Shown: positions 4,653 to 63,436 of the stretch, in pieces | Layout: the number at the start of each line of letters is the position of its first letter | Position numbering within the stretch: the first letter of the stretch is position 1 | Source: Patescibacteria group bacterium | GTDB taxonomy: Bacteria > Patescibacteriota > Minisyncoccia > Phycocordibacterales > UBA918 | Direction: 5' to 3' | NCBI GenBank assembly: GCA_038065355.1 | Contig: JBBTRC010000008.1 | Location: forward strand, 5,406-69,405 | DNA: 64,000 bases | The notes under the pieces: model-generated | Database searches by the model: none | What the model was told of the DNA's origin: nothing | What the model saw: only the letters and a program-made list of their open reading frames with translations | Program-made: the position numbers and the translations under genes

Positions 4653-5559
4653 CTACAATGACGACAACGTACAGAAGGCGGCGGAAAAACACGTCTGGTC
4701 TTGTATCGCGATCGGTGGCTGATGCTGGTAACCAGTGCGCAAACACCGCACCGATAATAAGGATGAAAACGAACCGCAGACCGTCAAGCGCCTGAACGAC
4801 GGACACATCTCCCCAGTCGGTGGCCTTAAGGAGCAGAAAGGCGGCGACACCAGCGAGAAGTTTGGTTATAACAACGAGATACCCTGTCTTTCTGGTGGCA
4901 GATTTTGTTTGTGATACGATCCTGTCGTAGTACGCCGGTACCAAAAGCAAAGAGAGAGTGAACAGCACAAAACCAACCCGCGACCAAAAGAAACCGTCGT
5001 CAAAACTGGTTTCAAGAAACAGTCCTTTCATGGTGATGTAGTGCAAACCGAAAAACAAACCGCTATGAAAGACGTGCACCACCACGTCTGCTTTGGGAAG
5101 TGTTTGCGCGACCAAGAGTGTCCCGACAGACAACAGAATGATGCCAAAAATAAAATTATGTGACAGTTGTACGTTCAAAAATAAGTAGCTCATGCCAAAC
5201 GTCGAGAGCGCCGACACGGCGCCGATGATCGGCATCACATTTGATGCGTCCGCGCGTTTGAGCGCGTCATACATAGACACGAGCGCCATAAAAAACGTGT
5301 AAGCGGCCAAAAACGACATGCCAACCACTTGAATGGTCGGGGACTTTACGTTTTCAAATGTCGGCATGCCGAGCTCCGCTAAGCCCGGCACCAATCCCAA
5401 AAAATAAATGATCACCCAGAAACCGGTTAAAAGACATGAATAAAAGGCGTACACAAACGGACGTGGCAAAACCCGATCGTCGGAAACGATGTACTTATCC
5501 AAAATCGCAACGACCGCATTCACAAGCTGCCCAGCGGTCGCCAAGAGTAACCAAGTCAT
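4627..5559 (-). CDS. Polytopic integral membrane protein (about 9-10 TM), function unknown
   Basis: 310-aa strongly hydrophobic ORF whose 26-nt overlap with the downstream gene suggests translational coupling. Confidence 0.5.
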   Translation of the reverse strand: MTWLLLATAGQLVNAVVAILDKYIVSDDRVLPRPFVYAFYSCLLTGFWVIIYFLGLVPGLAELGMPTFENVKSPTIQVVGMSFLAAYTFFMALVSMYDALKRADASNVMPIIGAVSALSTFGMSYLFLNVQLSHNFIFGIILLSVGTLLVAQTLPKADVVVHVFHSGLFFGLHYITMKGLFLETSFDDGFFWSRVGFVLFTLSLLLVPAYYDRIVSQTKSATRKTGYLVVITKLLAGVAAFLLLKATDWGDVSVVQALDGLRFVFILIIGAVFAHWLPASATDRDTRPDVFFRRLLYVVVIVVGYVILFT

Positions 5560-47828: not shown

Positions 47829-48542
47829 TTATTCAAATAATGCACTGGCAATGACCAATACGTAGAAAATTGCAGGCGCAACAACGAACCAGAATATACC
47901 TCGACCTTTCTGCACATGCATGACTTTTTTCACACCCTGATAACTAATATAAATTGAGTAGCCGATTGCCAAGAGAGAAAGAATTCCAAAAATAACATCC
48001 ACACTGGATGCTTCTGAATAATAGAGATCAAAATAATCACTGCCGTAAGCAACGTGATTAAGGAGCAGAGAACCAATAGCTGTCACTGAAATTGGGAGAG
48101 AAGAAAAAGTATAGATATTTCGGGCTGTATCGATAGTGCCAGATCCTTTTGACCATCCGACTCGAACATGATAGAACCAGCCACCGATGTAATAAGCAAT
48201 TGCTCCAGATAAGATACCTCCGAATAGAGCAATCGCCCAAACTTCACCCCAACTAGAGGATTCAGAGCCAGTAAGTCGATCCGCTGCACTCCCGATACCA
48301 AGAATCCAAATCGCCAAAAGTAGGTATTTTGGATTAGATGTAACCAGATGTTTCTGTGCGAATTCGCTAAAGTTTGTAAAACAGTCTTTAAAATACTCAA
48401 AGAATTTAACTCTATCTGCACTAGGAACAGACGTAGGCTCTGGGGTTGCGACTGGAACACTAGTTTGCTCCCCAGCTTTTTGTGGACTTTTGTCTAAGAA
48501 ATCAAAATTTAAAGATTTTTTCTCGTTCATATATTTATCCAA
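47829..48542 (-). CDS. Polytopic membrane protein (Yip1-like topology)
   Basis: Soluble N-terminal ~60 aa, then 5 TM helices. Confidence 0.4.
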   Translation of the reverse strand: MDKYMNEKKSLNFDFLDKSPQKAGEQTSVPVATPEPTSVPSADRVKFFEYFKDCFTNFSEFAQKHLVTSNPKYLLLAIWILGIGSAADRLTGSESSSWGEVWAIALFGGILSGAIAYYIGGWFYHVRVGWSKGSGTIDTARNIYTFSSLPISVTAIGSLLLNHVAYGSDYFDLYYSEASSVDVIFGILSLLAIGYSIYISYQGVKKVMHVQKGRGIFWFVVAPAIFYVLVIASALFE

Positions 48543-50130
48543 AGATTGCTCCTAAAACAATTATAATAATAATCCACACGACCCAGCCGATCACACTCGA
48601 CTTTGTGTTCTCTGCTTTTTTATTTTTAATCACTTCACCAAGTCCTACGTAATAGTAGGAGTTGAGAAGGATCTTAATTGCCATCTGCTCCCAGCGTTCA
48701 TCGAATGCCTCATCGATTTTCTTCAACATCTTATTTTGAACCTCATCCACTTCACTTGCATTATCCGCAGTAAGAACCTTAACGTTGTTTTTAATCAAAT
48801 CTAGCCAGGAGTCGATTACGCTCTTGTCTACATCATAAATTTCAATGTGTTCATACACAATCGATGCTGATTTTTGAAGTCCAGGTCGAGCCTCGTCGTA
48901 TTTATCAGCTTCAAATAACTTCTTCGCCTCAACGAACTCGACCACAGCATACATCGTAACAGCTTCCTTTTTCTTGCTATCCATCGCATTTTTAAATTCT
49001 GGATCTTTGCTCTCAGACTTCTTTTGATCTATGAGTGCTATCGCTTCTTGGAACTTCTTCTCATTCATGAGTTCCATGATTGGAGCTGTTGCATTTAAGA
49101 ACTTCTTATTTTCTTCAAATTGGTCGAGATCCTGCTTAAGTTTGTTTTCCATCCCAGATGTACCAACAAACTGCATAGCAATCTTTAGAAGTTGCTCAGC
49201 TTTGGGCATATCGTCCAAATTATTGTGGATATCAAGAACAATAGAACGTATCGCACCCGCCGCTCGGTCACGTATCGTTTTTGATTGACTGTCATCATAT
49301 AGACCGAGATCGATCAGCTTGTTGCAACAATCTTGGATTTTTCCGATATGTTCTTTGATATCTGAAGCTTCTTGTGCATCAAGGTCACCATCCTCTGAAA
49401 CCTTCATTGCTTCGAGCTTCTCGACCGCTTCTGTAATCTCCTGAAATATTGGAGCCATTACAACTTTCTCAGTCTTTTCTCCACGAAGATTAAATACTTT
49501 AGTAAATTCAGCTATGTAACCTCCATCCTCTCGAGAATGACTAATCTCTGTATAAAGATCAGAGAGAAATGAGGGTATCTGTTTATGAAAATCAGAGATA
49601 ACTTCTTGATCAGTATCAAGCTCATCGTTATGCTTATATACCTTTGTGAAAGCTGTCCAGAATTTTGATGAGTTAGTAAGCTCGTGCCAGATTTTTAAAG
49701 ACTCTTTTAGATATCGTTTATTGTCTTCTTTGAAAAGTAAGATGCAATACAGAAGCGCTAGATTCTTTTTATAAAACATCGCCTTTGTAGTATCGCCTTC
49801 GGAATTATGTTCCCAAACCCTTATAGCTCCTTCTGGATCTTTCTTACGAAGAATACCGACCGCTTGTTCGTCTACATCGTCAGAAATATGAAACCAGAAG
49901 AAATAATCCTTAATCTGCTTCTTTGGTGAAGAGAGTTTTTGAACAGCGTCCTTTATTGCACCTTCCGTTCGAAAGTTATCGAACACTCCCATATCTAGGT
50001 CGTATTCTGGAGTATCATCAATTTGGAGAAACTTTACAATTTCCTTTGCACGTTTCTGCATATCTCGTTGTGAAGCCGACGTGTCGAGACCGAGGATGTG
50101 ATATGCATTATTTTTTAATAGGTTTGACAT
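48535..50130 (-). CDS. J-domain-like protein with degenerate HPD motif and long helical C-terminal region; putative co-chaperone of adjacent Hsp70
   Basis: N-terminus NAYHILGLDTSASQRDMQKRAKEIVKFLQIDD aligns to the J-domain helices II-III (Y.ILG...AS...I.KAY.KL....HPD) but has IDD where HPD should be. Its start overlaps the next gene by 8 nt and lies 4 nt below the Hsp70 stop codon. Confidence 0.45.
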   Translation of the reverse strand: MSNLLKNNAYHILGLDTSASQRDMQKRAKEIVKFLQIDDTPEYDLDMGVFDNFRTEGAIKDAVQKLSSPKKQIKDYFFWFHISDDVDEQAVGILRKKDPEGAIRVWEHNSEGDTTKAMFYKKNLALLYCILLFKEDNKRYLKESLKIWHELTNSSKFWTAFTKVYKHNDELDTDQEVISDFHKQIPSFLSDLYTEISHSREDGGYIAEFTKVFNLRGEKTEKVVMAPIFQEITEAVEKLEAMKVSEDGDLDAQEASDIKEHIGKIQDCCNKLIDLGLYDDSQSKTIRDRAAGAIRSIVLDIHNNLDDMPKAEQLLKIAMQFVGTSGMENKLKQDLDQFEENKKFLNATAPIMELMNEKKFQEAIALIDQKKSESKDPEFKNAMDSKKKEAVTMYAVVEFVEAKKLFEADKYDEARPGLQKSASIVYEHIEIYDVDKSVIDSWLDLIKNNVKVLTADNASEVDEVQNKMLKKIDEAFDERWEQMAIKILLNSYYYVGLGEVIKNKKAENTKSSVIGWVVWIIIIIVLGAIFG

Positions 50131-50133
50131 AAA

Positions 50134-52647
50134 TTATTTAGTAATACCAGACATGTTACCTTGTATCATTTTCTGCTCGCTCGGCGGAAGGAGAAGCATC
50201 AGGTTGTGTACCGACCTTTTAAGTTCCTCAACATCGCCAAGCTCAAGGGCACGCTGTCCTTTATTCATGTAGTACTCAGCCTCTTTCGGACTTGTCCAAG
50301 CATGACTAGTTTCCTTTATCTTATTGAACATATAGACCCATGATGCAGGATTTGAGAAAAGTGCCTTATGATTGAGTTCTTGAAGCTGTTCCAATGAACG
50401 GCTGAGCATTACCTTGTCCTCTTTACCAATAGCCAGATCAGCTTCTTCCTTGATCACACGCAACTGGTCTTCGTACATTGCTTTTTCTGTCTGTTCACTC
50501 CATTCACTAATAATTCCTTCTACACTTTTTACCTTTTCTTCGTATTCTGATTTAAGCTGTGGAAACTCTTTCATCTTTTCGAGACCATCGAGCCGGATTT
50601 TTAGATCTTTGAGTTGTTTATCAGCCTTTCGTTTTTCATCCTCATCCACTTTTGCAGTCGATAGACTTCCTTCAAGAGACTGGACCAGATTCTGAAGCTT
50701 ACCTTTCTCTTCTGGAGTACATGATTGTTCGACTTTTTTCGCACGCTCGCTCTGCTCCTTGAGCTGTGTCTCCATTTCTTCGACACTCAAATTTTCTGCA
50801 TGGATTGTCGCACGTGCACTAAACGTGAGATCAATCGACGGAATAAACGCCTCCACCTTAACCTCACGAGATTCGTTCACCTCGATTGTAAGTGCAATTT
50901 CTGTACCTTCTGGTAAATCATATGGGAGTTTTTCTCCTGTCACCTTGAGGTCACAAATGAACTGATTCTGATCTGGCACAGCTGATTCACCTTCACGGAT
51001 TTTGATCGGGAGTGCGTTCTCTTTATCACCTTTGGCAAGCGGTTTAAGTGTCTTATATGTATGTGTGGCTTTGAGGGGAAGAATACTATTTTTCTCAAAA
51101 ATCACTTCAAACTCCTCGGTCATAGCAAAGCTAGCACCACTGAATCCACGCTTTACAACTCCTACTCCTATGGAGTGTGGTATCGGTGCACCAGACACTG
51201 AAAGACCGTGCGTTATAGAGAACGCCTCTGGTTCGGTTTTGATCGGGTTTCCTTCTGCATCGAACAAGTAAATCCAAAAGAGAGTAGTTTTGTTTTTATC
51301 GAGATTTACAGTTTCAATAAATTTGCCATTCTTAAGTTTTATTTTCTTTCCGCTAAAGAGTCCTCCCTCGCTCTGTATCTGAATGAAGTATTCTTCTTCT
51401 GTATCCTTAAGCTCTTCTACGACTCCAGTTATGGTCTCTTCGGTTTCGGAAGTCAGGGATTCATAGTTGAGACGCAAGGTTTTAATTGAGGAATCAGTTA
51501 ACTTTTTTGACTCAAGAAATTCCTTTGGAATCTTCTGGCTCACAGCATAGATACATGCACCACGCGCAACGACGGTTAGTGGATCGGACGAAGTGTCTAC
51601 TTCTATCTTCAAGTCTTTTTCCAAACGATCTTTTACGTACGGAATCATAGTAGGTCCGCCAACAAGTACAATCCTTGAAATGGATGATTGCTTCACTCCA
51701 GCCTCCTTAATGGTCTCCTTACTCAATTCAACAGTTTTATCGACAAACGGTTTAATCAGCTTTTCGAAATCTTTACGGGTAAAAGGTATAGTGAGATATA
51801 TTTCCTTGTTGTTGTCATCATCACCGATCTTTTCAACCTCGATAGTTATTTCATCAGTTTGAGAAAGTGAAATCTTTGCCGTCTCTGCATAGTATTTAAG
51901 CTTTGCAAACACACTACGATATTTTTTACTACTACGAGTAAAGTCTTCGATTTCATACTTTTCTAGAATAGCTGGTACGATGACCTTATCCACAACAGCC
52001 CAATCGAAATCTTTACCACCAAGGAAGTTGTCTCCATTATGCCCTAGTACAGAAAGTGCACCGTCCTTTGACGAAATGAGGGCAACATCGAACGTACCGC
52101 CTCCCAAGTCATACACAAGCCAGTTTTCATTCTGAGAATTCATAAAACCGTAAGCTATTGCCGCCGCAATCGGTTCCTGTATTAAGACCACATGCTTGAA
52201 GCCCGCAACATTACCCGCACGCTTGGTGGCTTCTGCTTGAAGCGTTGAAAAATAGGCAGGTATCGTGATGACAACACCAGTGGTTGGTGTGCCAGGATAC
52301 TTACGCAAAACATCTTCTTTAAGGCTCTTTAAAATTTCTCCAGAAATTTCTTCTGGAGACATATCCTCACCAAGACGATCGAAATGGACGGTGTCCGAAG
52401 TACCCATCAAGCGTTTTACTTCCGCCTTGTTATTTGAAAATTCTTCTTCTGATGCGTCTTTATAGAGACGCTCATAGGCTCGTTTTCCGACAACTTTATT
52501 TTTTGCTTTATCTACGCCAAAAACTGACGGCGTGTATTCATCATTAAAAATATTTTTAACCACCTCCACATGGTTTTTATTGTTTGCTGCAACTTCGGAA
52601 TTTGTTGTACCTAGGTCGATACCAATCTGTATGTTTTGGTTGTTCAT
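50134..52647 (-). CDS. Atypical Hsp70-family ATPase (DnaK-like NBD+SBD with about 200-aa coiled-coil C-terminal extension)
   Basis: IGIDLGTTNSEVA phosphate-1 motif, DLGGGTFDVALIS, and IVLVGGPTMIPYV. 837 aa compared with about 640 for DnaK. Confidence 0.8.
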   Translation of the reverse strand: MNNQNIQIGIDLGTTNSEVAANNKNHVEVVKNIFNDEYTPSVFGVDKAKNKVVGKRAYERLYKDASEEEFSNNKAEVKRLMGTSDTVHFDRLGEDMSPEEISGEILKSLKEDVLRKYPGTPTTGVVITIPAYFSTLQAEATKRAGNVAGFKHVVLIQEPIAAAIAYGFMNSQNENWLVYDLGGGTFDVALISSKDGALSVLGHNGDNFLGGKDFDWAVVDKVIVPAILEKYEIEDFTRSSKKYRSVFAKLKYYAETAKISLSQTDEITIEVEKIGDDDNNKEIYLTIPFTRKDFEKLIKPFVDKTVELSKETIKEAGVKQSSISRIVLVGGPTMIPYVKDRLEKDLKIEVDTSSDPLTVVARGACIYAVSQKIPKEFLESKKLTDSSIKTLRLNYESLTSETEETITGVVEELKDTEEEYFIQIQSEGGLFSGKKIKLKNGKFIETVNLDKNKTTLFWIYLFDAEGNPIKTEPEAFSITHGLSVSGAPIPHSIGVGVVKRGFSGASFAMTEEFEVIFEKNSILPLKATHTYKTLKPLAKGDKENALPIKIREGESAVPDQNQFICDLKVTGEKLPYDLPEGTEIALTIEVNESREVKVEAFIPSIDLTFSARATIHAENLSVEEMETQLKEQSERAKKVEQSCTPEEKGKLQNLVQSLEGSLSTAKVDEDEKRKADKQLKDLKIRLDGLEKMKEFPQLKSEYEEKVKSVEGIISEWSEQTEKAMYEDQLRVIKEEADLAIGKEDKVMLSRSLEQLQELNHKALFSNPASWVYMFNKIKETSHAWTSPKEAEYYMNKGQRALELGDVEELKRSVHNLMLLLPPSEQKMIQGNMSGITK

Positions 52648-52659
52648 AAAATATATTCC

Positions 52660-53181
52660 TTAGTTACTTAATAATATGATCTTGGCCTTTTTAACGACCT
52701 GACCTTTAACCAAAATTGTTGGCTCAACGGTTTCTTTCACCACAGGCGATACCACGGTAGGATCTTTTTCTACCGAGAGAACATCTAGGTTCAGTCCGTC
52801 ATTGAATTTCTGATTGGTGTAATCAATAATCTCAATGTCGTAATTGGATATATACCGTCTAAACTTGAGGACAGAATTCTCTAACCCCTTTCGTTGGTTT
52901 TCCTGAAGACTGTCAGCAATTTTTAATAATCGTTGTTCAACTCGCCACACTTCTGTCGCAAGTTCAACGAGTTCAGCGACGCTCGTAGAAAGATTTATAG
53001 ATTTGGGAGCAACAGCGTATTTAATTTCCTCGCTAATCTTTTTGTAGAGTTCATCAAATTTATCTGAAGCTTCTGTACTCTGCCCTGATTTGCGTCTAAG
53101 TAAATATAGAAATGCAAATATAAAAAATATCGCAATTACGAGAACGAGTATAAATATTGGATTTAAAAATAAGTTATTCAT
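52660..53181 (-). CDS. Membrane-anchored hypothetical protein
   Basis: N-terminal TM (LNPIFILVLVIAIFFIFAFLYLL), followed by a helical region. Confidence 0.4.
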   Translation of the reverse strand: MNNLFLNPIFILVLVIAIFFIFAFLYLLRRKSGQSTEASDKFDELYKKISEEIKYAVAPKSINLSTSVAELVELATEVWRVEQRLLKIADSLQENQRKGLENSVLKFRRYISNYDIEIIDYTNQKFNDGLNLDVLSVEKDPTVVSPVVKETVEPTILVKGQVVKKAKIILLSN

Positions 53182-53182
53182 T

Positions 53183-53518
53183 TTATTTCATTAACTCGTC
53201 AGTAGGGACACCTACTGCTTTAGCCAATTTGGCAATGGTTGCGAGAGTGGGGTTTGTCTTACCATTCTCGATATTGCTTATAAAGCTTCGACTGACCTCA
53301 AGTTCCCGAGCAATATCACCCTGAGAGATATTCTTTGCTGTTCGGATACGCTTAAGGTTATTACCTAATTTTTCTGACTCGCTTTTCATAATCTCACTAT
53401 ACGCTCTGTTATAGTTTAACACAACAGTATCATATAGTGTACTACCTCCAGAGTGTTCTAGTTGTGCAGAAAGTATGCTCATGATAATTCGACTTTCTCT
53501 CTTAAATCTTGGAAGCAA
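53183..53518 (-). CDS. XRE-family HTH transcriptional regulator (Cro/CI-like)
   Basis: C-terminal HTH_3: LKRIRTAKNISQGDIARELEVSRSFISNIENGKTNPTLATIAKLAKAVGV. Confidence 0.65.
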   Translation of the reverse strand: MLPRFKRESRIIMSILSAQLEHSGGSTLYDTVVLNYNRAYSEIMKSESEKLGNNLKRIRTAKNISQGDIARELEVSRSFISNIENGKTNPTLATIAKLAKAVGVPTDELMK

Positions 53519-54072
53519 ACTGGTGATATTTGTTGCTTAGTAAGGAGCACCATCGATACGCTAGCCCTGTTTTTCGATATATTTCGTAGTTCATCTTTAG
53601 AAAGGACATAGAAGCACCACTGATCCATATCGAGGATGTCGAGCGTGGCGTGTTCTTGGTGTTTGAACAGTGCAAGGACGTAGATGTCGGATTTGTAGTC
53701 GGCAAGCTTGTTCAATTCAGAAAGCTTAGTGACGGCTTCCGAGTAGTACAGTTCTTTTGCTTTGAGTCCTGACCATTGGATCGTCGTGAGTTTGTTCTGA
53801 TCCCAGTCTTGGATATATGAACAGCATTTCACTTCTATCTTCTTTCCTTTATACAAAACATCGTAGTCACCCCACGGACTGCGAACTTCAATCTCCATAT
53901 TGTCCTTGAGTGCGTTCTCGACGATGAACTCGGCAAGTGCACCTCGAAGTACGTTCGAGTTCAGACTTGAAAAGCCATACTGCCAGAATTCCAGTACGGA
54001 GAATTTCTTTTGACCGACATTTTTAAATTGTTCAGAGCCTGTGAGTTTGCTCACAGGAATTCTTTTATACAT
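53479..54072 (-). CDS. Hypothetical protein with PD-(D/E)xK-nuclease-like motif
   Basis: GDYDVLYKGKKIEVKC fits the D ... E-x-K pattern, a weak single-motif call. First gene of the minus-strand block, overlapping the XRE gene by 40 nt. Confidence 0.3.
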   Translation of the reverse strand: MYKRIPVSKLTGSEQFKNVGQKKFSVLEFWQYGFSSLNSNVLRGALAEFIVENALKDNMEIEVRSPWGDYDVLYKGKKIEVKCCSYIQDWDQNKLTTIQWSGLKAKELYYSEAVTKLSELNKLADYKSDIYVLALFKHQEHATLDILDMDQWCFYVLSKDELRNISKNRASVSMVLLTKQQISPVCFQDLREKVELS

Positions 54073-54075
54073 TTT

Positions 54076-54177
54076 TTTGGACGGTTTTAGTTTCGGTCAG
54101 GTAGCAAAAAGCTCCTAACCAGGCCGATATACCCCGTGAGATATACCCATACCCCTTTCGAGATATGACCGTCCAAA
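54076..54177. repeat. MITE-like 102-bp element bounded by 10-bp terminal inverted repeats (tttggacggt ... accgtccaaa) in the divergent control region
   Basis: TIRs are exact reverse complements. The interior contains gatataccc x2 and gagatat x2. It begins 4 nt upstream of the start codon of 53479..54072. Confidence 0.4.
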
Positions 54178-54203
54178 GTAGCTCTGATTAGGAGTTCTTT
54201 ACT

Positions 54204-54260
54204 TTGGACGGATTTTCGACCATATCCGAAAAGTTTTAAGGCTTTTCGGGGTTAGGTCTC
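54204..54260 (+). repeat. Copy A of direct repeat ttggacggNttttcgaccatatc ... gggttaggtct, upstream of the DGR target gene
   Basis: Shares a 23-nt core and an 11-nt 3' box with copy B at 57328..57376. The core is also the near-palindromic partner of the MITE-like element's right end. Confidence 0.4.
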
Positions 54261-54547
54261 TTATTCAGTTGTACCTAGAACATAATACCAAAATTGATGG
54301 TATTAGTCAGTAGCTTAGCTTAGAAAAAGGCAGTTGCGAAGCCCTTTTACCGACATTTGACAGATTGCCAAAATCATTGACAAACAGTCATTTGTTTGAT
54401 ATGATACTTGAGACTGCTCTTTGAGATAAGAATCACTGCATAACGATGTTTGAGATGAGCTTTTTGAGCCTTAAATCAGGGCCTAGAAAGCTCGTCTCAA
54501 ACTGAGGCAAGTCGTTCCGAGCGTTCTCGGTAAATCAGCAAAAGGAG

Positions 54548-55348
54548 ATGATGTCGATGAAAACATTGAACACGTCTGCACTGGTAACCGCAGACAGTCC
54601 GAAAGGACAGAGAGCTACCGAAACGTTCCGTGCCCAATACAACAAGGCGGGACTCAACGACGAAAGCGCACAAATCCTGAACGAGAATCCCGGCTTCGCC
54701 GTGTATCTCGCCGAAGGTATCCGTCGCTTCTCAGCCAAAGCGCCCGACTACGGTTTGGCGCAGTCAATCCTCGGCACGGATTTCATCACGCCAGAGGAAG
54801 TCAGCAAGGCTCGCCCGAGCATCGTGTACACCGACGACCAGATCACGGCACTCGCCGAAAGTCTGCCGTCGGAAGACATGCTCAAGTGGTGCAAGGACAA
54901 CGGTTACGCCGTCATGCCCGCACCGCCCACGGCGATGTCACTGCTCGACGTTCGGGAGATCCAGTCCACCCACTTCTACTCGAAGACGGGTGGGTGGTAT
55001 TCCGACCAGAAGTTCGCTCGCGAAGACAGGACGTCTTTCGGATGGCTCGCCATCAAGAAGACTCCGATCTCCGACTCGACCAGCAAAAACTGGAACGAGC
55101 AGAACAAGCTTCTGTCCGCACTCGAGACGGTGCCTAACGCCGCCGAGATGAGCTGGTTCATCACGACCTATTTCGAGGTCCGTGGTATCCGACTCTTCGA
55201 AAGCATCTACGTTCGGACTTCCAGTCTCGGCTCGGGCGGTGGCCGTGTTCTCGTCGGCAGCTTCGTTTCCGGGGGTCTCATCGTCAACGACTGGGACGGC
55301 GACCGCCGCGACAGCAACATCGGCTTGTCGGGTGCCAGGAAGCAGTGA
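54548..55348 (+). CDS. DGR target (variable) protein; C-terminal variable repeat in a presumed C-type-lectin/FGE-like fold
   Basis: The last ~40 codons (VR) are a near-copy of the downstream TR, differing only at TR adenines. It ends ... NIGLSGAR, resembling the conserved CLec-fold VR terminus. AGGAG RBS at 54543 fits best with the ATG at 54557. Confidence 0.7.
   Translation: MMSMKTLNTSALVTADSPKGQRATETFRAQYNKAGLNDESAQILNENPGFAVYLAEGIRRFSAKAPDYGLAQSILGTDFITPEEVSKARPSIVYTDDQITALAESLPSEDMLKWCKDNGYAVMPAPPTAMSLLDVREIQSTHFYSKTGGWYSDQKFAREDRTSFGWLAIKKTPISDSTSKNWNEQNKLLSALETVPNAAEMSWFITTYFEVRGIRLFESIYVRTSSLGSGGGRVLVGSFVSGGLIVNDWDGDRRDSNIGLSGARKQ
55225..55339 (+). repeat. DGR variable repeat (VR)
   Basis: 115-bp alignment to TR (offset +477) with 17 mismatches, all where TR has A. 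The last 26 bp are identical and GC-rich (IMH-like). Confidence 0.8.
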
Positions 55349-55701
55349 TCCTTGATCCCTTGAGGACTTGTTCCTCTTGAATACTTGAGCCTTCGCGAAA
55401 TTTTTTTTCGCGAAGGCTCTTTCTTTTTATACATAAACAAAATATACTCTTATTATCTTGCTCATGTAGCTTGGATCACGGTTCAAGCTCGCGAGATACC
55501 TCACCTGAGAACTGCCTGAGTGCCATTAGTCTACGGATTACGGCAGAGCGCAGTAAAGGATAGAGAGAACTTCTTGCCTGTTTCTAGTGGAGATGTCTTT
55601 GAAAAAAGACTGCTCCCAAATAAAATTCAGAGATGGGAGGATATAGACCTGTAAAGGTAGTAAACCTCGATTCTCGGTGACACAGACGGAAATGGGCAAT
55701 A

Positions 55702-55816
55702 TCTCGACTCGGACGGTAACCGTGTTAACGTCGGCAACTTCGATTCCAAGGGTCTCAACGTCAACAACTGGAACGACGACAACCGCAACAGCAACATCGG
55801 CTTGTCGGGTGCCAGG
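55702..55816 (+). repeat. DGR template repeat (TR)
   Basis: Non-coding copy of the VR, rich in AAC codons in the VR frame (gacggtaaccgtgttaacgtcggcaacttcgattccaagggtctcaacgtcaacaactggaacgacgacaaccgcaacagcaac). Confidence 0.8.
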
Positions 55817-55836
55817 CAGTCATAACTCTATCCAAG

Positions 55837-55861
55837 GAAAACCCACGTAATGTGGGTTTTC
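55837..55861. terminator. 10-bp hairpin gaaaacccac-gtaat-gtgggttttc immediately 3' of TR and 3' of avd (opposite strands)
   Basis: Exact reverse-complement arms, with a T-tract on the plus strand and an A-tract on the minus. Confidence 0.4.
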
Positions 55862-55863
55862 TG

Positions 55864-56265
55864 TTAACGCTCTCTCGTGGACTTTATCCAGCCTCCAAGC
55901 ATTCTTCCGATCTCATCAAGGTTCGCTTCGATAATGATGTATTTCTTGGAGTCGATTGCCTTGATGTCCTTCATGAGACGGATGCACACTCGTAGAAAGT
56001 TAAGCTTGACGCTCGTCTTCTCCAAGGTCGGCAATTTGTCCGCTTTGGATTGCTGGCTTGAGAAAAGAATTCCCTCCAGAACCTCGATCAGAAGACTCTC
56101 GCACTTTTGCCAGAGCGTATAGCGGTCTTGTTTTGGTACGCTCAGCCTCAGAGCATAAAACTCTTTGTACAAATCGTAGGACTTCTTGAATATTGGTATG
56201 TCTAAGTCATTCATATATGAAGATTCATAATAATTTATATTGGTTGATAATTTCTCCCGAAACAC
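55864..56265 (-). CDS. avd: DGR accessory variability determinant (Avd), four-helix-bundle family
   Basis: C-terminus IIEANLDEIGRMLGGWIKSTRER matches Bordetella phage bAvd ... LIAEVGRILGSWIARVNRK. Size 117-133 aa. The probable start is Met18 at 56214. Confidence 0.6.
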   Translation of the reverse strand: MFREKLSTNINYYESSYMNDLDIPIFKKSYDLYKEFYALRLSVPKQDRYTLWQKCESLLIEVLEGILFSSQQSKADKLPTLEKTSVKLNFLRVCIRLMKDIKAIDSKKYIIIEANLDEIGRMLGGWIKSTRER

Positions 56266-57266
56266 TTTTCCGTGCGTGGGAAATATTCAAATCCGACAAA
56301 CGCAACAAGCCTGATGTTATAGAGTTTGAGCTGAACCTCGAGCAAAATATTTTTGATCTTTACAGGGATTTGAAAGCAGGAAAATACAAGCACGGACCAT
56401 ACCGAGGATTCTGGATTCACGACCCCAAGCTCAGGCGAATCCACAAGGCTACGGTACGAGATCGAGTGCTTCATCATGCTGTGTTCTATATTTTGAATCG
56501 AATATTTGAGCCGACCTTTATCAACGATTCGTATTCCTGCCGAATCGGCAAAGGTACGCACAAGGGCATGGAAAAGGTTGCCAGCATGATTCGAGCTGTG
56601 AGCAAGAACTACACGCATCCGTGTTACGCACTGAAATGCGATGTGAGAAAATTCTTTGATTCGATGGATCATGACACTCTTCTGAAGATTCTCTATAAGA
56701 AGGTTAAAGATGAGAAAGTACGCTGTCTTCTGAGCGAGATTATCGAGAGCTTCGAGGCAAGTCGTCCGAATCTTTTCGAACGCAGGGGTGTGCCGATTGG
56801 AAACCTGACCTCGCAAGTGTTCGCAAACATCTATATGAATGAATTTGATCAGTTTATGAAGCATGAGTTGAAAGTAAAAAATTATGCACGGTACACCGAT
56901 GACTTCGTGATCATTTCCGATGACAAAGCATATCTCGAAGGATTGCTAGAACCGATTGGAAAATTCCTAAAATCAAAGCTCCATCTCGATCTGCACCCGA
57001 AGAAAATAATCTTGAAGAAGCACACCCAAGGTATCGATTTTCTTGGGTACGTGATACTTCCGCATCACATCAAGCTCCGCACGAAAACGAAGCGCAAGAT
57101 TCCCAAGAAAATCCGCCAAAGCGTAGCCCTCTACAAAGACGAGCGGATAAACGAGATAACAATGAAATCCTCACTCGCTTCCTACTTGGGAGTACTTTCC
57201 CATGCCGATGCTTACGAGATGACCGAGAGCGTAAGGAATTTGTTTTGGTTCTGGCTGAGTGAATAA
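56193..57266 (+). CDS. DGR reverse transcriptase
   Basis: RT4 motif PIGNLTSQ (DGR-specific IGxxxSQ, as opposed to QGxxxSP of group II introns), YTDD catalytic box, and N-terminal KAGKYKHGPYRGFWIHDPK matching bRT KAGNYERGPYREFLVYEPK. The likely start is 56217 (MKIHNNLYW). Confidence 0.85.
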   Translation: MVCLSHSYMKIHNNLYWLIISPETLFRAWEIFKSDKRNKPDVIEFELNLEQNIFDLYRDLKAGKYKHGPYRGFWIHDPKLRRIHKATVRDRVLHHAVFYILNRIFEPTFINDSYSCRIGKGTHKGMEKVASMIRAVSKNYTHPCYALKCDVRKFFDSMDHDTLLKILYKKVKDEKVRCLLSEIIESFEASRPNLFERRGVPIGNLTSQVFANIYMNEFDQFMKHELKVKNYARYTDDFVIISDDKAYLEGLLEPIGKFLKSKLHLDLHPKKIILKKHTQGIDFLGYVILPHHIKLRTKTKRKIPKKIRQSVALYKDERINEITMKSSLASYLGVLSHADAYEMTESVRNLFWFWLSE

Positions 57267-57327
57267 AACAAAATCCTCGCAAGCCGACTCGACACAAAAG
57301 GTCGAATCCTCATGCGAGGAATCTCTC

Positions 57328-57376
57328 TTGGACGGCTTTTCGACCATATCTCTTTCGAGGGTTAGGTCTTCGGATT
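57328..57376 (+). repeat. Copy B of direct repeat ttggacggNttttcgaccatatc ... gggttaggtct, immediately downstream of the DGR RT
   Basis: See copy A. Preceded by a small hairpin tcctc-atgc-gagga at 57309..57322. Confidence 0.4.
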
Positions 57377-57802: not shown

Positions 57803-59083
57803 ATGGCTAAACAAAAATTAGAGTGGCGCACTGAGCGTCGCAAAGTGAAGGATCTCATTCGTTATGAAAAGAATCCTCGCAAATTATCAGCAACCCAGCT
57901 TGATGGACTGAAACGCAGTCTCAAGAAATTCAATGTCGCCGAACTGCCCTGCATCAATACTGACGGCACGCTCGTGGCAGGAAATCAGCGGGTCTTGGCA
58001 CTTTCCCTTCTTGGTCGAGGCGAGGAAGAAATCGAAGTGCGTGTACCGAATAGGACTTTGACCGATGAGGAGTTCAAAGACTATCTTCTGACTTCTAACC
58101 GTAGTGGAGCGTCATGGGACTTCGAGAAACTTGCCGCCGAGTTCAACCTCGACGAACTGCTCACTGCAGGTTTCGACTCATTCGACCTCTCAAACATCTT
58201 TGACGACAACCTTGAAGTTGAGGACGACGAGATAGACATCGAGAAAGAGATTAAGGAGGCACAGACAACAGACATCAAGTCTGGGGACAGATTCTTGCTC
58301 GGAACTCACACCCTGATCTGTGCAGACAGCACGGATCCAGAGACGGTACACAAACTTGTCGGTGAAAACAGAATTGACCTCATCAATATAGATTATCCGT
58401 ACAACATCGGCGTGGACTATTCCGCAGGTCTAGGTGGGAAGCAAAACTATGGAGGGACGACCAATGACAAGAAGACCGATGCTGAGTACGAAGAATTTCT
58501 TGCCAGCATTCTCACCAATGCAATAAGTGTCACAAAGAAAGACGCACACATCTTCACGTGGCTCGATGAGAAATATATCGGCACGATGCAGAACGTGTTC
58601 AAGACGACAGGTGTCGAGTTCAAGCGATTGTGCCTATGGGCGAAAAACTCACATAACCCGACACCAAAGATAGCGTTCAACCGAGCCGTCGAGCTGTGTA
58701 TGTATGGGGTTAAGGGCAAGCCATTCCTTTCGGACAAGATAAAGAACCTGACCGAATTCCAGAACAAGGAGATCGCTTCGGGCAATCGGCTCATTGACGA
58801 CATCCTCGACATGTTCAACATCTGGCTCGTAAAGAGACTGCCAAGCTCTGATTATCTCCATCCGACAATGAAGCCTCCTACCTTGTATGAAAAGAGTATC
58901 AGGCGATGCAGTAGACCAGGAGATGCCGTGCTTGATCTCACGGCAGGTTCGGGAAGCCTGATGGTTGCCTGTGAGGCACTTAAGCGTCGAGCGTATCTAG
59001 CGGAAATTGAACCCGTGTTCTGCCAAGTCATCATTAATCGCTTTAAGAAAATATCAAATGAAAAAATCATCAAACTCAATTAA
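57803..59083 (+). CDS. ParB-like nuclease N-terminal domain fused to a beta-class N6-adenine/N4-cytosine DNA methyltransferase
   Basis: ParB-N (KVKDLIRYEKNPRKLSATQLDGLKRSLKKFNVAELPCI...GNQRVLA). MTase motif IV region IDYPYNIG (non-canonical DYPY) and motif I DLTAGSGSLMVACE. Confidence 0.75.
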   Translation: MAKQKLEWRTERRKVKDLIRYEKNPRKLSATQLDGLKRSLKKFNVAELPCINTDGTLVAGNQRVLALSLLGRGEEEIEVRVPNRTLTDEEFKDYLLTSNRSGASWDFEKLAAEFNLDELLTAGFDSFDLSNIFDDNLEVEDDEIDIEKEIKEAQTTDIKSGDRFLLGTHTLICADSTDPETVHKLVGENRIDLINIDYPYNIGVDYSAGLGGKQNYGGTTNDKKTDAEYEEFLASILTNAISVTKKDAHIFTWLDEKYIGTMQNVFKTTGVEFKRLCLWAKNSHNPTPKIAFNRAVELCMYGVKGKPFLSDKIKNLTEFQNKEIASGNRLIDDILDMFNIWLVKRLPSSDYLHPTMKPPTLYEKSIRRCSRPGDAVLDLTAGSGSLMVACEALKRRAYLAEIEPVFCQVIINRFKKISNEKIIKLN

Positions 59084-59819
59084 GTACGGCGACAGTTTTC
59101 GCCTCGGCAACCATCTGCTTCTTTGTGCCGATTCCCGCAACAAGGACATGGTCGCCAAACTAGTCGGAGATCAAAAAATAAAAGCCGTGGTCATCGACCC
59201 TCCGTACGGAGTTGCCGTAACCGAGAGCAAGGAGGGATTCCAGACGCTCGCGAAGAACAAGGTGATCGCAAACGACCATCTCCAAAGCGACGAGGAATAC
59301 CGCAAGTTCACATCGGACTGGATCGAGGCAGTTACTCCGCATCTTGAACGCAAGAACTCTTTCTACATCTTCAACTCGGACAAGATGGTCTTCGCCCTGC
59401 GTGAGGGCATGGTGGATGCGGGTGTGAAGTTCGGACAGTTATTGATCTGGGTTAAAACGCACGCAGTCATCGGACGCATGGATTACGCACCCCAGCACGA
59501 ACTCATCGCATATGGATGGTTTGGAGTGCACGAGTTCCTGAAGTCGAAAGACAAAAGCGTCCTTCTCTGCCCGAAGCCGAACAAGAGCAAGATGCATCCG
59601 ACGACAAAACCCTTGGACTTGATTCGTCGTCTCATCTTGAACAGTACACGGATTGGTGACGTGGTGTATGACGGTTTCCTCGGAAGCGGTACCGCACTGC
59701 TTGCATGCGAACAAACCAAGCGTATCTGCATCGGTGTCGAGCTTGATCCCGAATACTGCCAGACGATCATCGACCGCTTTGAGAAATTAACAGGAATTAA
59801 GGCGGAACGGTATGAGTAG
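59058..59819 (+). CDS. Beta-class DNA methyltransferase (DPPY), tandem paralog of the upstream MTase domain
   Basis: VIDPPYGV motif IV and DGFLGSGTALLACE motif I. N-terminal DSFRLGNHLLLCADSRNKDMVAKLVG parallels DRFLLGTHTLICADSTDPETVHKLVG of the upstream gene. The ORF track's earliest Met is 59007. Confidence 0.75.
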   Translation: MKKSSNSIKYGDSFRLGNHLLLCADSRNKDMVAKLVGDQKIKAVVIDPPYGVAVTESKEGFQTLAKNKVIANDHLQSDEEYRKFTSDWIEAVTPHLERKNSFYIFNSDKMVFALREGMVDAGVKFGQLLIWVKTHAVIGRMDYAPQHELIAYGWFGVHEFLKSKDKSVLLCPKPNKSKMHPTTKPLDLIRRLILNSTRIGDVVYDGFLGSGTALLACEQTKRICIGVELDPEYCQTIIDRFEKLTGIKAERYE

Positions 59820-60234
59820 ACGTGACACCATCAAAGCCCGACAAAACAAGCTCAAGGAGGCGTTCCTTGAGCAGTTGAAGCGTACACCGACGATCGAGAC
59901 TGCGTGCCAGAAAGTCGGAGTGGCTCGGGCGACAGTGTATCGATGGATCAGCGGGAACAAGAAGTTTGAAAAGCTGGTGGACGAAGCCTTGGTCGAAGGC
60001 AGGACGTTCATGTCAGACATCGCCGAGAACCAGCTCTTTTCCCTCATCGGCGACAAGAAGATCGAAGCAATCAGGCTGTACCTGTCGACACACAACGCAC
60101 GGTACAGCAACAAGATCGAGTTATCTGGATCTGTGTCGAAAGACGAGCCGCTCACCAAGGAGCAGAAGAAGCTTATCCGCGAAGCTCTAAAGCTTTCGTC
60201 ATTACGCAACTATGGCAAGAGAAAGGAAAAGTAA
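59812..60234 (+). CDS. Putative terminase small subunit (HTH)
   Basis: 140 aa, HTH (TPTIETACQKVGVARATVYRWISG), directly upstream of and overlapping the TerL start. Confidence 0.4.
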   Translation: MSRRDTIKARQNKLKEAFLEQLKRTPTIETACQKVGVARATVYRWISGNKKFEKLVDEALVEGRTFMSDIAENQLFSLIGDKKIEAIRLYLSTHNARYSNKIELSGSVSKDEPLTKEQKKLIREALKLSSLRNYGKRKEK

Positions 60235-61693
60235 ATCCGACAAGCTGTTCGACAGGGTTCTCTCGGACAAGGCGACGAGAAAGGTGCTCGTGCGTGAGCG
60301 GTTGGAGTATTTCTTCCCGATCTACTTCCATCGGTACATGCAGTACGAGACTGCCAATTTCCACAAGGAAATATTCGACATTCTTGAGAACGAAGCGATC
60401 AAGCTCGCCGTCATCTGTGCCTTCCGAGGCTCCGCCAAGTCGACCATCATCACGACCGCATACGTCCTGTGGTCTATTCTTGGCGTGCAACAGCGGAAGT
60501 TCATCGTCATCTGCGGTCAGACCGAACAGAAATCGAGACAGTACCTTCTCAACATCAAGAACGAGCTTCTGAACAATGACCTCCTGAAGAAAGACCTCGG
60601 ACCGTTCACTGAGGAAACGAACCATCTGGGCAATGCCACGGCGATCATAATCAAGAAGCTCAACGTGAAGATCATGATCAGCTCAGTCGAGCAGAGTATC
60701 CGTGGTATGCGACACGGCGAGCATCGTCCCGACCTCATCATTCTCGACGACATCGAGGACACGAACTCTGTGAAGACCAAGGAAGGTAGAGACAAAGCAT
60801 TCAACTGGCTAACGAGCGAGGTTGTTCCTGCGGGTAGCAAGAAGACCCGCATCATTGCCGTGGGTAACCTGCTCCATGAGGACTCGGTACTGAAGCGTCT
60901 CCAGAAAAAAATCGAGAGCGACGAGATGACGCACATGAACGGCGTGTATCGTGAGTATCCGATCATCGACGATCAAGGGAATCCTCTCTGGCTTGGGAAG
61001 TATCCGACCCCTGACGATATCGAGATGGAACGGCAAAAAACCATGAGCGAGACGGCGTGGTATCGGGAGTATCTTCTGAAGATCATCTCGACCGAGGAAC
61101 AGGTCGTGTATCCCGAATGGATACAGTGCTATGCCAAGATGCCGTATGACGGATTCCGAAGCGTTGCCATCGGTATTGACTTGGCGGTGAGCGAGAAGGA
61201 GTCTGCTGACTATACCGCCATGGTGGTAGGTCATGTCTACGGATATGGGAAGAACATGGCGATATACATCCAGCCGAATCCGATCAATGCACGTATGCCG
61301 TTCCCAGTTCAGACGCAGACAATCAAGTCACTCGTCGCCACGGAAAAGCAGAAGCATCATCGGGTGAAGCTGTACATCGAGGACGTTGGGTACCAGAAGG
61401 CACTCGTGCAAGTATTCGAGAGCCAAAGATACGATGTCGAGGGCGTGCCGACTGGACGGAGCGACAAGACCGCACGACTCAGACTGACGACTCCCTTCAT
61501 CAAAGAGGGTCGTGTGCTCTTCCCCGAGAAAGGATGCGAGGAACTTCTGATGCAACTGACAGGGTTCGGCAAAGAGACGCATGATGACCTTGCGGACGCT
61601 TTTGCGATGCTTGTTTTGAAAGTGATCGAAGATAATCCGCGCTGTGGGACAGCAGGAACTTTTGCGAATGGCGTACGCTTTGATGCCATCTAG
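60212..61693 (+). CDS. Phage terminase large subunit
   Basis: N-terminal ATPase with AFRGSAKST Walker A (Terminase_6/PBSX-type GGRGSGKS). C-terminal RNase-H-like nuclease (IGIDLAVSEKESADYTAMVV). Confidence 0.75.
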   Translation: MARERKSKSDKLFDRVLSDKATRKVLVRERLEYFFPIYFHRYMQYETANFHKEIFDILENEAIKLAVICAFRGSAKSTIITTAYVLWSILGVQQRKFIVICGQTEQKSRQYLLNIKNELLNNDLLKKDLGPFTEETNHLGNATAIIIKKLNVKIMISSVEQSIRGMRHGEHRPDLIILDDIEDTNSVKTKEGRDKAFNWLTSEVVPAGSKKTRIIAVGNLLHEDSVLKRLQKKIESDEMTHMNGVYREYPIIDDQGNPLWLGKYPTPDDIEMERQKTMSETAWYREYLLKIISTEEQVVYPEWIQCYAKMPYDGFRSVAIGIDLAVSEKESADYTAMVVGHVYGYGKNMAIYIQPNPINARMPFPVQTQTIKSLVATEKQKHHRVKLYIEDVGYQKALVQVFESQRYDVEGVPTGRSDKTARLRLTTPFIKEGRVLFPEKGCEELLMQLTGFGKETHDDLADAFAMLVLKVIEDNPRCGTAGTFANGVRFDAI

Positions 61694-61699
61694 ACTTCC

Positions 61700-62080
61700 A
61701 TGAGGGACTGCGTCATTCATTGGTATGTGGATGACATCGAAGCAATCATAGATGCGAGCAAGCATTTCAAATACCATGAGCCGACTGGCACGACTCCTTT
61801 CAATCGCATTTCCAATCTTCCTGAGACAAAGAAGCACATGAAGAGAGCGATCAAGGAACGGATGCAACTTCTAGTCGGAGCGTATATCTCGCTTGCCTCA
61901 TTTATCGACGACGACCTCGTCGATTTTTTGGAGAGCGACGAATCAAGTTTTGATAAAGAAAAGATAAAGAGGGTTTACGAGACGGTACTGGATGACATGG
62001 AAAAGCTGAGGGAAGAAATGGAGGAATTCGACCCTTTTGAGTTACCAACTTCGGGAGTCTCGGACTCACTAGACTCATAG
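61700..62080 (+). CDS. Acidic hypothetical protein
   Basis: 126-aa ORF flanked by a ~40-bp direct repeat. Confidence 0.4.
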   Translation: MRDCVIHWYVDDIEAIIDASKHFKYHEPTGTTPFNRISNLPETKKHMKRAIKERMQLLVGAYISLASFIDDDLVDFLESDESSFDKEKIKRVYETVLDDMEKLREEMEEFDPFELPTSGVSDSLDS

Positions 62081-62086
62081 AGGGTA

Positions 62087-63436
62087 TTGCGTCATTCATT
62101 GTGTTGTATGACAAACATAACAATACAAAAGCCGGAAATGGGGTTGGCACAGGAGGTATCCCCATCAGGAGTTAAGTACTGCCTGTATGCAAGAAAAAGT
62201 ACGGAACAAGAGGACAAGCAAGCATTATCAATTGAATCGCAGGTTAAGGAGATGATCACCCTCGCCGAACGGGAGGGTCTGGAGATTGTGGAAATAAAGC
62301 GAGAGTCGCACTCTTCAAAGGAGGTTGGGCAAAGACCCGTGTACAACGAGCTAATCAATGAGATCAGACAAGGAAAATTCAACGGAATACTTACATGGGC
62401 ACCCGATCGCTTGAGTCGAAATGCGGGCGACCTTGGTAGTGTGGTAGACCTGATGGATCAAGGATTGCTCCACGAAATACGCACCTACGGACAGAAGTTT
62501 ACGAACAACCCAAATGAGAAGTTTCTCCTGATGATCCTCGGATCGCAAGCGAAGCTTGAGAACGACAACAAGATGGTGAACGTGAAGCGAGGATTGCGAG
62601 CAAGGTGTGAGATGGGACTCTGGCCGTCGGTACCGCCGACTGGGTATCTGAGCCACTCTGACCGAAACAAGAAGTGCGAGGTAGTACTCGATGAGCAACG
62701 AGCTGACGTGATCAAGCAGATGTACGAGAAAGTGGCATACGACGGATGGTCTGGACGAAAGCTCTTCTACTGGCTCAAAGACGACATACGGTTCAGAACA
62801 AAGCACGGAAAGCCACTGACCCTGAGCAACATTTACATAATATTAAAGAGTACCTTCTACTACGGAGAGTTTGAGTACCCTAAAGGAGGCGGACAGTGGT
62901 ACAAGGGTGTGCACGATCCGATCATCACCAAGGACCTCTACTTGCAGGTGCAGGACAGGATCACGAGCGACCACGTGGTGCGTGACCAGAACAAGGAGTT
63001 TGCCTTCACGAGGATGATCACCTGCGGACTCTGCGGATCAGGAGTGACAGCAGACGAGAAATTCAAGAAGCTCAAGGACGGAACGACTAACAGGTACGTC
63101 TACTACGGATGCACGAAGTTCAAAGACAAAAACTGTCCGTGCGGGTATGTGCGAGAAGAAGACTTGATTGAACAGCTAGCCAGCGTGCTCGACGTGGTAT
63201 CGCTCGACGAGATCGGTATGAAAGACAGGATCAAGGCAGAAATAGAATCACACAATGAGTTCCAAGAATCGGTACTCGGGAAAGAGGTTAAGGAGAAGAT
63301 AAAGATCAAGGAGATCGACATCAGGAACTATGCGAAGCACATCCTACGAAAGCGACCAATGCACGAGAAGCGAGAGCTATTGAAGCATCTGAGGAGTAAG
63401 CTGGTGCTGAAAGATAAAACACTTACACTCGTATAA
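62087..63436 (+). CDS. Large serine recombinase (integrase)
   Basis: Resolvase catalytic N-domain (YCLYARKSTEQE ... LTWAPDRLSRN), a recombinase domain, and a C-terminal zinc ribbon (CGLCGSG ... YYGCTKFKDKNCPCGY). The track start is TTG. The first ATG is at 62108. Confidence 0.8.
   Translation: MRHSLCCMTNITIQKPEMGLAQEVSPSGVKYCLYARKSTEQEDKQALSIESQVKEMITLAEREGLEIVEIKRESHSSKEVGQRPVYNELINEIRQGKFNGILTWAPDRLSRNAGDLGSVVDLMDQGLLHEIRTYGQKFTNNPNEKFLLMILGSQAKLENDNKMVNVKRGLRARCEMGLWPSVPPTGYLSHSDRNKKCEVVLDEQRADVIKQMYEKVAYDGWSGRKLFYWLKDDIRFRTKHGKPLTLSNIYIILKSTFYYGEFEYPKGGGQWYKGVHDPIITKDLYLQVQDRITSDHVVRDQNKEFAFTRMITCGLCGSGVTADEKFKKLKDGTTNRYVYYGCTKFKDKNCPCGYVREEDLIEQLASVLDVVSLDEIGMKDRIKAEIESHNEFQESVLGKEVKEKIKIKEIDIRNYAKHILRKRPMHEKRELLKHLRSKLVLKDKTLTLV

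Follow-up and report, generated by a model that had tools for sequence, protein, structure and literature searches.

A candidate-phyla-radiation-type diversity-generating retroelement in a Patescibacteria genome, with leads on its RNA, its target flank and its genomic setting

We analyzed a stretch of 64,000 nucleotides from a Patescibacteria group bacterium (GenBank assembly GCA_038065355.1, contig JBBTRC010000008.1, positions 5,406 to 69,405 of the forward strand), hereafter called the window. An initial annotation had singled out two direct repeats in it as the variable repeat (VR) and template repeat (TR) of a diversity-generating retroelement (DGR). The repeats lie in a cassette with a target gene, an accessory gene (avd) and a reverse transcriptase (RT) gene. 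These core features are given below in positions of the window; LR1 and LR2 are two long-range RNA helices described further on.

54548 to 55348, plus strand: DGR target gene, 266 amino acids (263 with the start at 54557 chosen by the gene caller)
55225 to 55339, plus strand: VR, forming the final ~38 codons of the target ORF, with 17/17 adenine-specific differences
55702 to 55816, plus strand: TR, 115 nt with 30 adenines, non-coding, enclosed by LR1 and LR2
55864 to 56214, minus strand: avd accessory gene, 116 amino acids, convergent with the TR, its start head-to-head with that of the RT gene
56217 to 57266, plus strand: DGR reverse transcriptase, 349 amino acids, RVT_1 family, a single intact open reading frame (ORF) without a (GA)n tract

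Direct comparison of the two repeats at an offset of 477 reproduced all 17 mismatches reported in the initial annotation (VR positions 55230, 55236, 55241, 55242, 55250, 55251, 55260, 55266, 55271, 55272, 55281, 55289, 55295, 55299, 55304, 55305 and 55310). At each of them the TR base was A and the VR base was G, C or T, as had been claimed. The TR adenines, earlier put at about 30, numbered exactly 30 of 115 nt, and realignment gave zero mismatches at other bases; the hypergeometric probability that all 17 mismatches land on these adenines is 1.4e-12. Sequence outside the pair was unrelated, with 8/30 positions identical on each side. In a repeat search this was the sole long repeat pair in the 64-kb window, and an adenine-tolerant scan of both strands detected no further VR or remote target there. 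The pair scored 85/85 non-A positions in that scan, where the background reached at most 42/85.

In the frame of the target ORF, all 30 TR adenines occupied codon positions 1 or 2 and none position 3. Together with the 10 AAC codons of the TR, this bears out the earlier description of an AAC-dominated template; the accompanying claim that stop codons are avoided did not hold strictly, since a lone AAG codon could become TAG. At their 3' ends the repeats share an identical run, given as 26 bp in the initial annotation and measured here as 29 nt (55311-55339), after which they diverge. The hypervariable columns of the family alignments coincided exactly with the A-templated codons. The gene context is likewise that of a DGR, with the VR at the 3' end of an ORF, enrichment in AAC codons and a non-coding TR that lies 401 nt before the RT start.

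The best PDB match of the RT was bRT of a Bordetella phage (8ub7, chain 8ub7_A; E 1.6e-44), followed by structures of group II intron (LtrA) and retron RTs at ~1e-20. The protein carries the DGR-typical motif IGNLTSQ (IGxxxSQ) and YTDD (YxDD), and it keeps the equivalents of bRT K29, R74, D138, I181, Q187 and D215/D216; the numbering of 8ub7_A agrees with the bRT residues of Handa et al. (bioRxiv 10.1101/2023.10.23.563531). These motifs, and a homology to bRT exceeding that to group II intron and retron RTs, place the enzyme in the DGR clade. The Avd protein matched Pfam bAvd (PF22296) with 61.3 bits (cut-off 40) and had no sequence-level PDB match. Identity to the Avd of close relatives was 86-92%; two more distant relatives reached 57-60%. 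The start codons of avd and RT stand head-to-head (56212-56219), 2 nt apart in the window and 2-3 nt, usually 2, apart across related loci, and the promoter and leader of each gene must therefore lie inside the coding sequence of the other. The first ~14-15 RT codons were nearly invariant in nucleotides (synonymous diversity 0.26 vs ~0.5 elsewhere), a sequence constraint that would fit an embedded avd promoter or leader.

The target protein consists of a helical N-terminal region and a C-terminal domain (residues ~91-266) with a C-type-lectin fold that resembles Mtd, TvpA and TaqVP and corresponds to the display scaffold of DGRs. It had no match in Pfam, NCBIfam, PHROG or PADLOC. In comparison with TvpA of Treponema denticola and TaqVP of Thermus aquaticus, which are bacterial chromosomal DGR variable proteins, identity was 13-16%, the target domain was smaller, the N-terminal region differed, and no lipoprotein or signal sequence was seen by inspection. 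We collected 411 target homologs, the named ones mostly from Patescibacteria (Paceibacterota, Taylorbacteria, Kaiserbacteria, Nomurabacteria). The identical protein is encoded on a 523-kb Hainich groundwater contig and is deposited as MEK7638972.1 ('Patescibacteria group bacterium').

Related loci were scanned with the same tolerance for adenine changes; an exact-seed repeat search had missed most TR/VR pairs because the mutagenesis is so heavy. Across 16 related pairs (14 related loci and the window), 250 of 281 mismatches lay at TR adenines, and 10 of the 16 pairs were wholly A-specific. The block of TR, reversed avd and RT is conserved and takes one of two placements: after the target on its strand, or ahead of it on the other strand. 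All 16 genome-derived relatives with an avd gene have the order TR-avd-RT, with one contig (L004) ending before the RT. In L004 we rejected the adjacent TR as the cognate template (4681-4795 vs 5154-5268), as the two repeats differ by 33 mismatches, 12 of them non-A and clustered 3'; the cassette may have been exchanged, or a second TR may exist elsewhere.

An ordinary duplication of the gene's 3' part that later diverged, without any retroelement, would explain only that a direct repeat exists. The mismatch pattern (P = 1.4e-12), the adjacent RT and Avd and the recurrence of the pattern in 16 independent TR/VR pairs all argue against such a duplication, to which we attach a negligible chance. 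We consider the locus to be a complete chromosomal DGR of the candidate-phyla-radiation (CPR) type in a Patescibacteria genome, with a probability of about 0.95. The same interpretation in the initial annotation is supported by the C-type-lectin target, the non-coding TR, the Avd and the bRT-like RT that all surround the repeats.

Both this kind of system and this cassette layout are already described for the bacterial group. DGRs of CPR and DPANN organisms were reportedly treated by Paul and colleagues in Nat Microbiol in 2017. The succession of TR, reverse-strand avd and RT is known as 'Architecture B3' and is typical of CPR DGRs (Wu et al. 2018, NAR 46:11, PMC5758913); the window has it in the form TR 55702-55816 (+), avd 55864-56214 (-) and RT 56217-57266 (+). 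It shares with the CPR/DPANN B3 elements the core order, the opposite-strand avd between TR and RT, a groundwater Patescibacteria host, a C-terminal VR and the lack of a recognizable domain before the VR, and we found no qualitative difference in the cassette. The locus is a clean example of a CPR-type DGR with all parts placed to the nucleotide, and its value lies in what the comparison yielded besides. These new leads, unequally supported, are a 5' RNA domain with clamp helices, an element flanking the VR, links to a terminase/integrase module and to the LOOT RNA, and a (GA)n tract in RT genes of relatives. In the literature searched, the RNA domain, the VR-flank element and the terminase/integrase, LOOT and (GA)n links were undescribed.

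The ~250 nt on the 5' side of the TR were as conserved as the TR itself (15 loci, both module orientations). This conservation begins at ATCTTGC (55455), 6 nt past a conserved TATAAT/TATACT box. A family-specific RNA 18-mer retrieved 79 metagenome loci, and after chance 18-mer matches had been filtered, 49 unique sequences were available for a consensus fold. The elements of the putative RNA are as follows.

55443 to 55448, plus strand: -10-like box, TATACT (TATAAT or TATACT in relatives), deduced from the 15-locus alignment
55455 to 55701, plus strand: 5' structured domain of the DGR RNA, from the consensus fold of 49 unique family sequences
55455-55497 (P1), 55511-55554 (P3), 55589-55616 (P4) and 55630-55675 (P5), plus strand: hairpins of the 5' domain in the consensus fold
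55558 to 55565, plus strand: 5' strand of LR1, GGAUAGAG, pairing with 55826-55833
55574 to 55585 (UUGCCUGUUUCU) with 55688-55699 (GGAAAUGGGCAA), plus strand: LR2, directly 5' of the TR
55826 to 55833, plus strand: 3' strand of LR1, CUCUAUCC, 9 nt 3' of the TR
55836 to 55862, plus strand: stem-loop 3' of the TR, then a U-rich run; 11 pairs, 96% canonical, 6 changed on both sides

Among LR2, the 3' stem-loop and the main hairpins, each helix had 93-100% canonical pairing and 4-6 pairs altered on both sides, and partner-shifted controls for the RNA helices were 15-70% canonical. For LR2 these values were 12 pairs, 97% canonical and 5 changed on both sides, with shifted controls at 43-53%. LR1, whose 5' strand is separated from that of LR2 by an invariant GAGAACUUCUU, was also 97% canonical and nearly invariant, with a compensatory GGUAGGGA/UCCUUACC variant in one relative (L017). 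Pooled over the 97 base pairs that lie outside the TR, canonical cells made up 96.8%, and 48 pairs had changed on both sides, compared to 25.5 ± 2.5 in shuffled alignments (0/500 shuffles reached 48). The minimum-energy fold of the window RNA reproduced the consensus structure. The result is a testable secondary-structure model that spans the full DGR RNA of the commonest CPR cassette type, Architecture B3.

On the 3' side of the TR, conservation stops after a 9-nt linker, the 8-nt helix strand and one stem-loop (~45 nt). A conserved 'Sp' region antisense to avd was considered and rejected: synonymous diversity stayed level along avd at 0.53 and matched that of the RT (0.51), and in view of this lack of synonymous-site constraint no conserved RNA extends past the stem-loop on its 3' side. 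Rfam 15 gave no match to the TR-flanking RNA at E ≤ 5, and sub-threshold His_leader and isrK matches were dismissed as chance or terminator-driven.

The DGR of the Bordetella phage BPP-1 (mtd-avd-TR-brt), for which there is a cryo-EM model of bRT, Avd and RNA (PDB 8ub7 series), offers a point of reference for such an RNA. There, Sp wraps around bRT, provides the primer and forms duplexes with the TR and with upstream sequence, and an Avd-binding stem-loop lies directly past the TR (Handa et al., bioRxiv 10.1101/2023.10.23.563531). The window element is similar in its adenine-specific TR/VR differences, homologous RT (E 1.6e-44), Avd and C-type-lectin target, as well as in the inverted repeat past the VR, and it has possible counterparts of the stem-loop directly 3' of the TR and of the duplex between upstream and downstream sequence. 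It differs in its avd, which is encoded on the opposite strand with no overlap with the RNA, and in that the element is chromosomal in a bacterium and not attached to a phage tail-fibre gene. It also differs in the placing of the scaffold: in BPP-1 the Sp scaffold, ~140 nt long, follows the TR on its 3' side, whereas the window has no large structured RNA on that side and instead a conserved scaffold of ~250 nt on the 5' side. By analogy with BPP-1, LR1 is a candidate counterpart of the 'cPRT Stop' upstream/downstream duplex, and the stem-loop at 55836-55862 is a candidate Avd-binding stem-loop. The same stem-loop is a candidate bidirectional terminator in common with the convergent avd gene. 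Compared with BPP-1, the DGR RNA may thus have a permuted topology, with the protein-binding and priming scaffold 5' of the template. A published survey of DGR RNA elements covered only 40 nt upstream of the TR.

Beyond the identical 3' run of the repeats, a second conserved region is found at the VR only. It is listed here with the other signals around the target gene.

54377 to 54405, plus strand: promoter-like site before the target gene, TTGACA-17-TATGAT with TG, 11/12 consensus matches, presumed from these to act as a promoter
55340 to 55392, plus strand: VR-specific conserved 3' flank with the stop codon, five CTTG[A/T] repeats and a 5-bp hairpin
55387 to 55419, plus strand: intrinsic terminator of the target gene from a terminator scan, 14-bp stem and T-run, kept in relatives

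The CTTG[A/T] repeats start at 55351, 55359, 55367, 55376 and 55384, with a spacing of 8-9 nt, and the 5-bp hairpin (55362-55376) reads GAGGA-CTTGT-TCCTC. The flank (~50 nt) was kept in 60/61 of the unique flanks listed, including targets without a nearby TR, and was absent beside the TR. Its hairpin was fully paired in 41/47 unique contexts, with the compensatory forms GAGGG/CCCTC, GAGGA/TCCTC and GAGAG/CTCTC. Some relatives have longer insertions inside the hairpin, and these appear self-complementary by eye.

An inverted repeat 3' of the initiation of mutagenic homing (IMH) site is required for efficient homing in Bordetella and Legionella, and is recognizable in just 34% of DGRs (Wu et al. 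2018, PMC5758913). The window combines a GC-rich, IMH-like 3' boundary common to both repeats with an inverted repeat beside the VR alone, as judged from the sequence. Because the last 29 nt of VR and TR are identical, we propose the flank as a candidate target-recognition feature (IMH-flank or cruciform-like) that would discriminate VR from TR. The IMH-like boundary suggested in the initial annotation is plausible, and it is strengthened by this conserved flank and its hairpin, which had gone unnoticed. The candidate recognition element is present even on targets without a TR close by.

Taken together, a ~410-nt non-coding RNA (~55455-55866) would be made from its own promoter, as conservation and motifs suggest, and would contain the 5' domain, the TR and the 3' stem-loop. 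The covariation of the two long-range helices points to a joining of the 5' domain to the borders of the TR, which would present the template as a closed loop. By homology to the bRT-Avd complex, RT and Avd would associate with this RNA and make a cDNA of the TR, with misincorporation opposite adenines. The cDNA would then replace the VR, probably guided by the common GC-rich 3' end and the VR-flank hairpin, to go by analogy and conservation. As a result, up to ~19 codons could be recoded on the C-type-lectin-fold domain of the 266-residue protein.

Many family RT genes contain a (GA)5-16 tract, encoding 'RERERE', in a loop just before IGNLTSQ. It was found in L003, L008-L013, L017, L028 and ~18 metagenome loci, its length varying between loci. 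The reading frame was intact in 20/20 RTs without the tract, and 22/27 tract-bearing RTs were out of frame. The window RT is one intact ORF without a tract and does not qualify as a phase-variable gene. From its sequence, the tract looks like a slipped-strand phase switch or a decay hotspot on the mutagenic enzyme, and hypermutation may be gated on and off by such a slipped-strand switch in many relatives. If the tract is a true phase switch, one diversity mechanism would control another. We found no report of a DGR RT switched by a simple sequence repeat, in a literature search that was incomplete. That the permuted RNA topology, the (GA)n switch or both are real and previously undescribed is possible, at odds somewhat short of even.

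Natural diversification by this DGR family is directly evident in a sister lineage, the 90%-identity cluster nearest to the window protein. Its nine target proteins vary in 0/210 columns of the protein body and in 15/44 columns of the VR region. For the window itself, a fossil DGR has to be considered, an intact cassette that has ceased to diversify the VR in this strain, with the 17 substitutions left over from activity in the past. In favor of it, the six contigs encoding the exact protein, which come from several Hainich samples, all shared the window VR, and the frame-shifted (GA)n RTs of many relatives indicate a family often switched off or decaying. On the other hand, the window RT and Avd are full-length with complete catalytic residues, the 30 TR adenines are retained with a perfect codon-position bias, the RNA helices and the VR flank are intact, and the nearest sister lineage varies in its VR only, with identical protein bodies. 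On balance we regard a fossil as unlikely, though as the most serious of the rivals.

Several points weigh against the reading of the locus as a complete DGR. The single VR in six contigs gives no sign of current activity in the window strain, and the evidence consists of contig sequences. The NCBIfam model DivGenRetAVD (NF033474) scored the Avd at 79.4 bits, just below its cut-off of 80, and no hydrophobic N-terminal signal sequence was recognizable in the target by inspection. The 2-nt spacing of the avd and RT starts complicates any account of how the RT is transcribed. LR1 is supported chiefly by conservation, apart from the L017 variant, because it is almost invariant. Finally, the priming site, the ends and the promoter of the DGR RNA are all inferred.

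Many targets in the family have no TR within ±4 kb. A VR with the conserved flank, and no TR, avd or RT within ±4 kb, was seen in L005, L006, L007, L018, L019 and L021, and further targets of this kind are L023-L025, L027 and L034-L036. A DGR at another place in the genome may act on such targets in trans; alternatively, they may be orphans. In two homologs (P0029 and P0065) the VR segment is tandemly duplicated. Synonymous diversity of the target gene was low, at 0.28, vs ~0.5 for avd and RT (73 loci; partly different locus set), and lowest, at 0.12-0.14, in the first 30 codons (window 54548-54640). This low diversity hints at a nucleotide-level constraint or at a recent exchange of the target gene.

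Past the RT gene, the window encodes a ParB-methylase, a second methylase, TerS, TerL, a 126-residue ORF and a serine integrase (57803-63436). Beside the DGR in related loci, an integrase was found 16 times, TerL 8 times, and methylases and TerS 5 times; the linkage was seen in L015, L026, L081, L091, L004, L042, L038 and L113. The usual order is methylase-TerS-TerL-[DGR]-integrase, and the order in the window is permuted.

These phage-derived genes directly downstream, recurring in several relatives, are what favors a phage-borne DGR inside a prophage that would switch tropism through a receptor-binding protein, as the BPP-1 element does. Against this, neither the window nor L001, whose sequence reaches past the window, showed capsid, portal, tail or lysis genes by the module, and the target has no PHROG match. 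The RNA 18-mer with its 79 metagenome matches had zero in the viral contigs of IMG/VR, and in many relatives the DGR has tRNA or cellular genes as neighbors and lacks a terminase within ±4 kb. A phage-borne element is hence improbable, more so than a fossil one. The neighborhood of the chromosomal DGR resembles a compact integrative module more than it does a complete prophage, and the whole cassette may be cargo of such a methylase-TerS-TerL-serine-integrase mobile module. Membership in a defence system was considered and not supported, since the PADLOC matches were limited to generic ones for the RT and methylases, with none for the target or Avd.

Two matches to the LOOT RNA model lie in the same region.

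54126 to 54258, minus strand: LOOT RNA (Rfam RF03000), 79.1 bits vs a gathering threshold of 46.4, model positions 1-121
57269 to 57368, minus strand: weak LOOT-like match just past the RT stop, 20.8 bits, E 0.71, below the gathering threshold

The first is the sole above-threshold Rfam match in the 64 kb. It is divergent from the target gene and has a promoter-like site upstream (54310-54282, minus strand). The second may be a chance match; together the two bracket exactly the DGR cassette of the window. Relative to this DGR family, LOOT has two fixed positions. It occupies an upstream position, ~260-430 nt from the target on the opposite strand, in the window and likewise in L091 (9165-9294), L081 (5389-5515) and L059 (3755-3879). 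It occupies a downstream position, 200-600 nt past the RT and antisense, in L042 (8736-8864) and L026 (7316-7434), both strong matches. As LOOT was present in only 6/32 sequences scanned (window included), we rejected it as an obligatory part of the DGR; the orphan RNA may also belong to the methylase-terminase-integrase module. The terminase/integrase module, the LOOT RNA and the (GA)n tract could explain how hypermutation spreads and is regulated in organisms with genomes of ~0.5 Mb.

Of the genes upstream in the window, the J-domain-like, Hsp70-like, GrpE-like and 197-residue ORFs stood beside the DGR in no related locus, and the helix-turn-helix (HTH) gene was found weakly in two. The first three form an operon-like minus-strand run (48535-53181) that encodes a J-domain-like protein of 531 residues with a C-terminal hydrophobic tail, an 837-residue Hsp70-like protein and a weakly GrpE-like protein of 173 residues. 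This chaperone-like run is followed by the HTH gene (53183-53518) and then by the 197-residue ORF without family matches (53479-54072).

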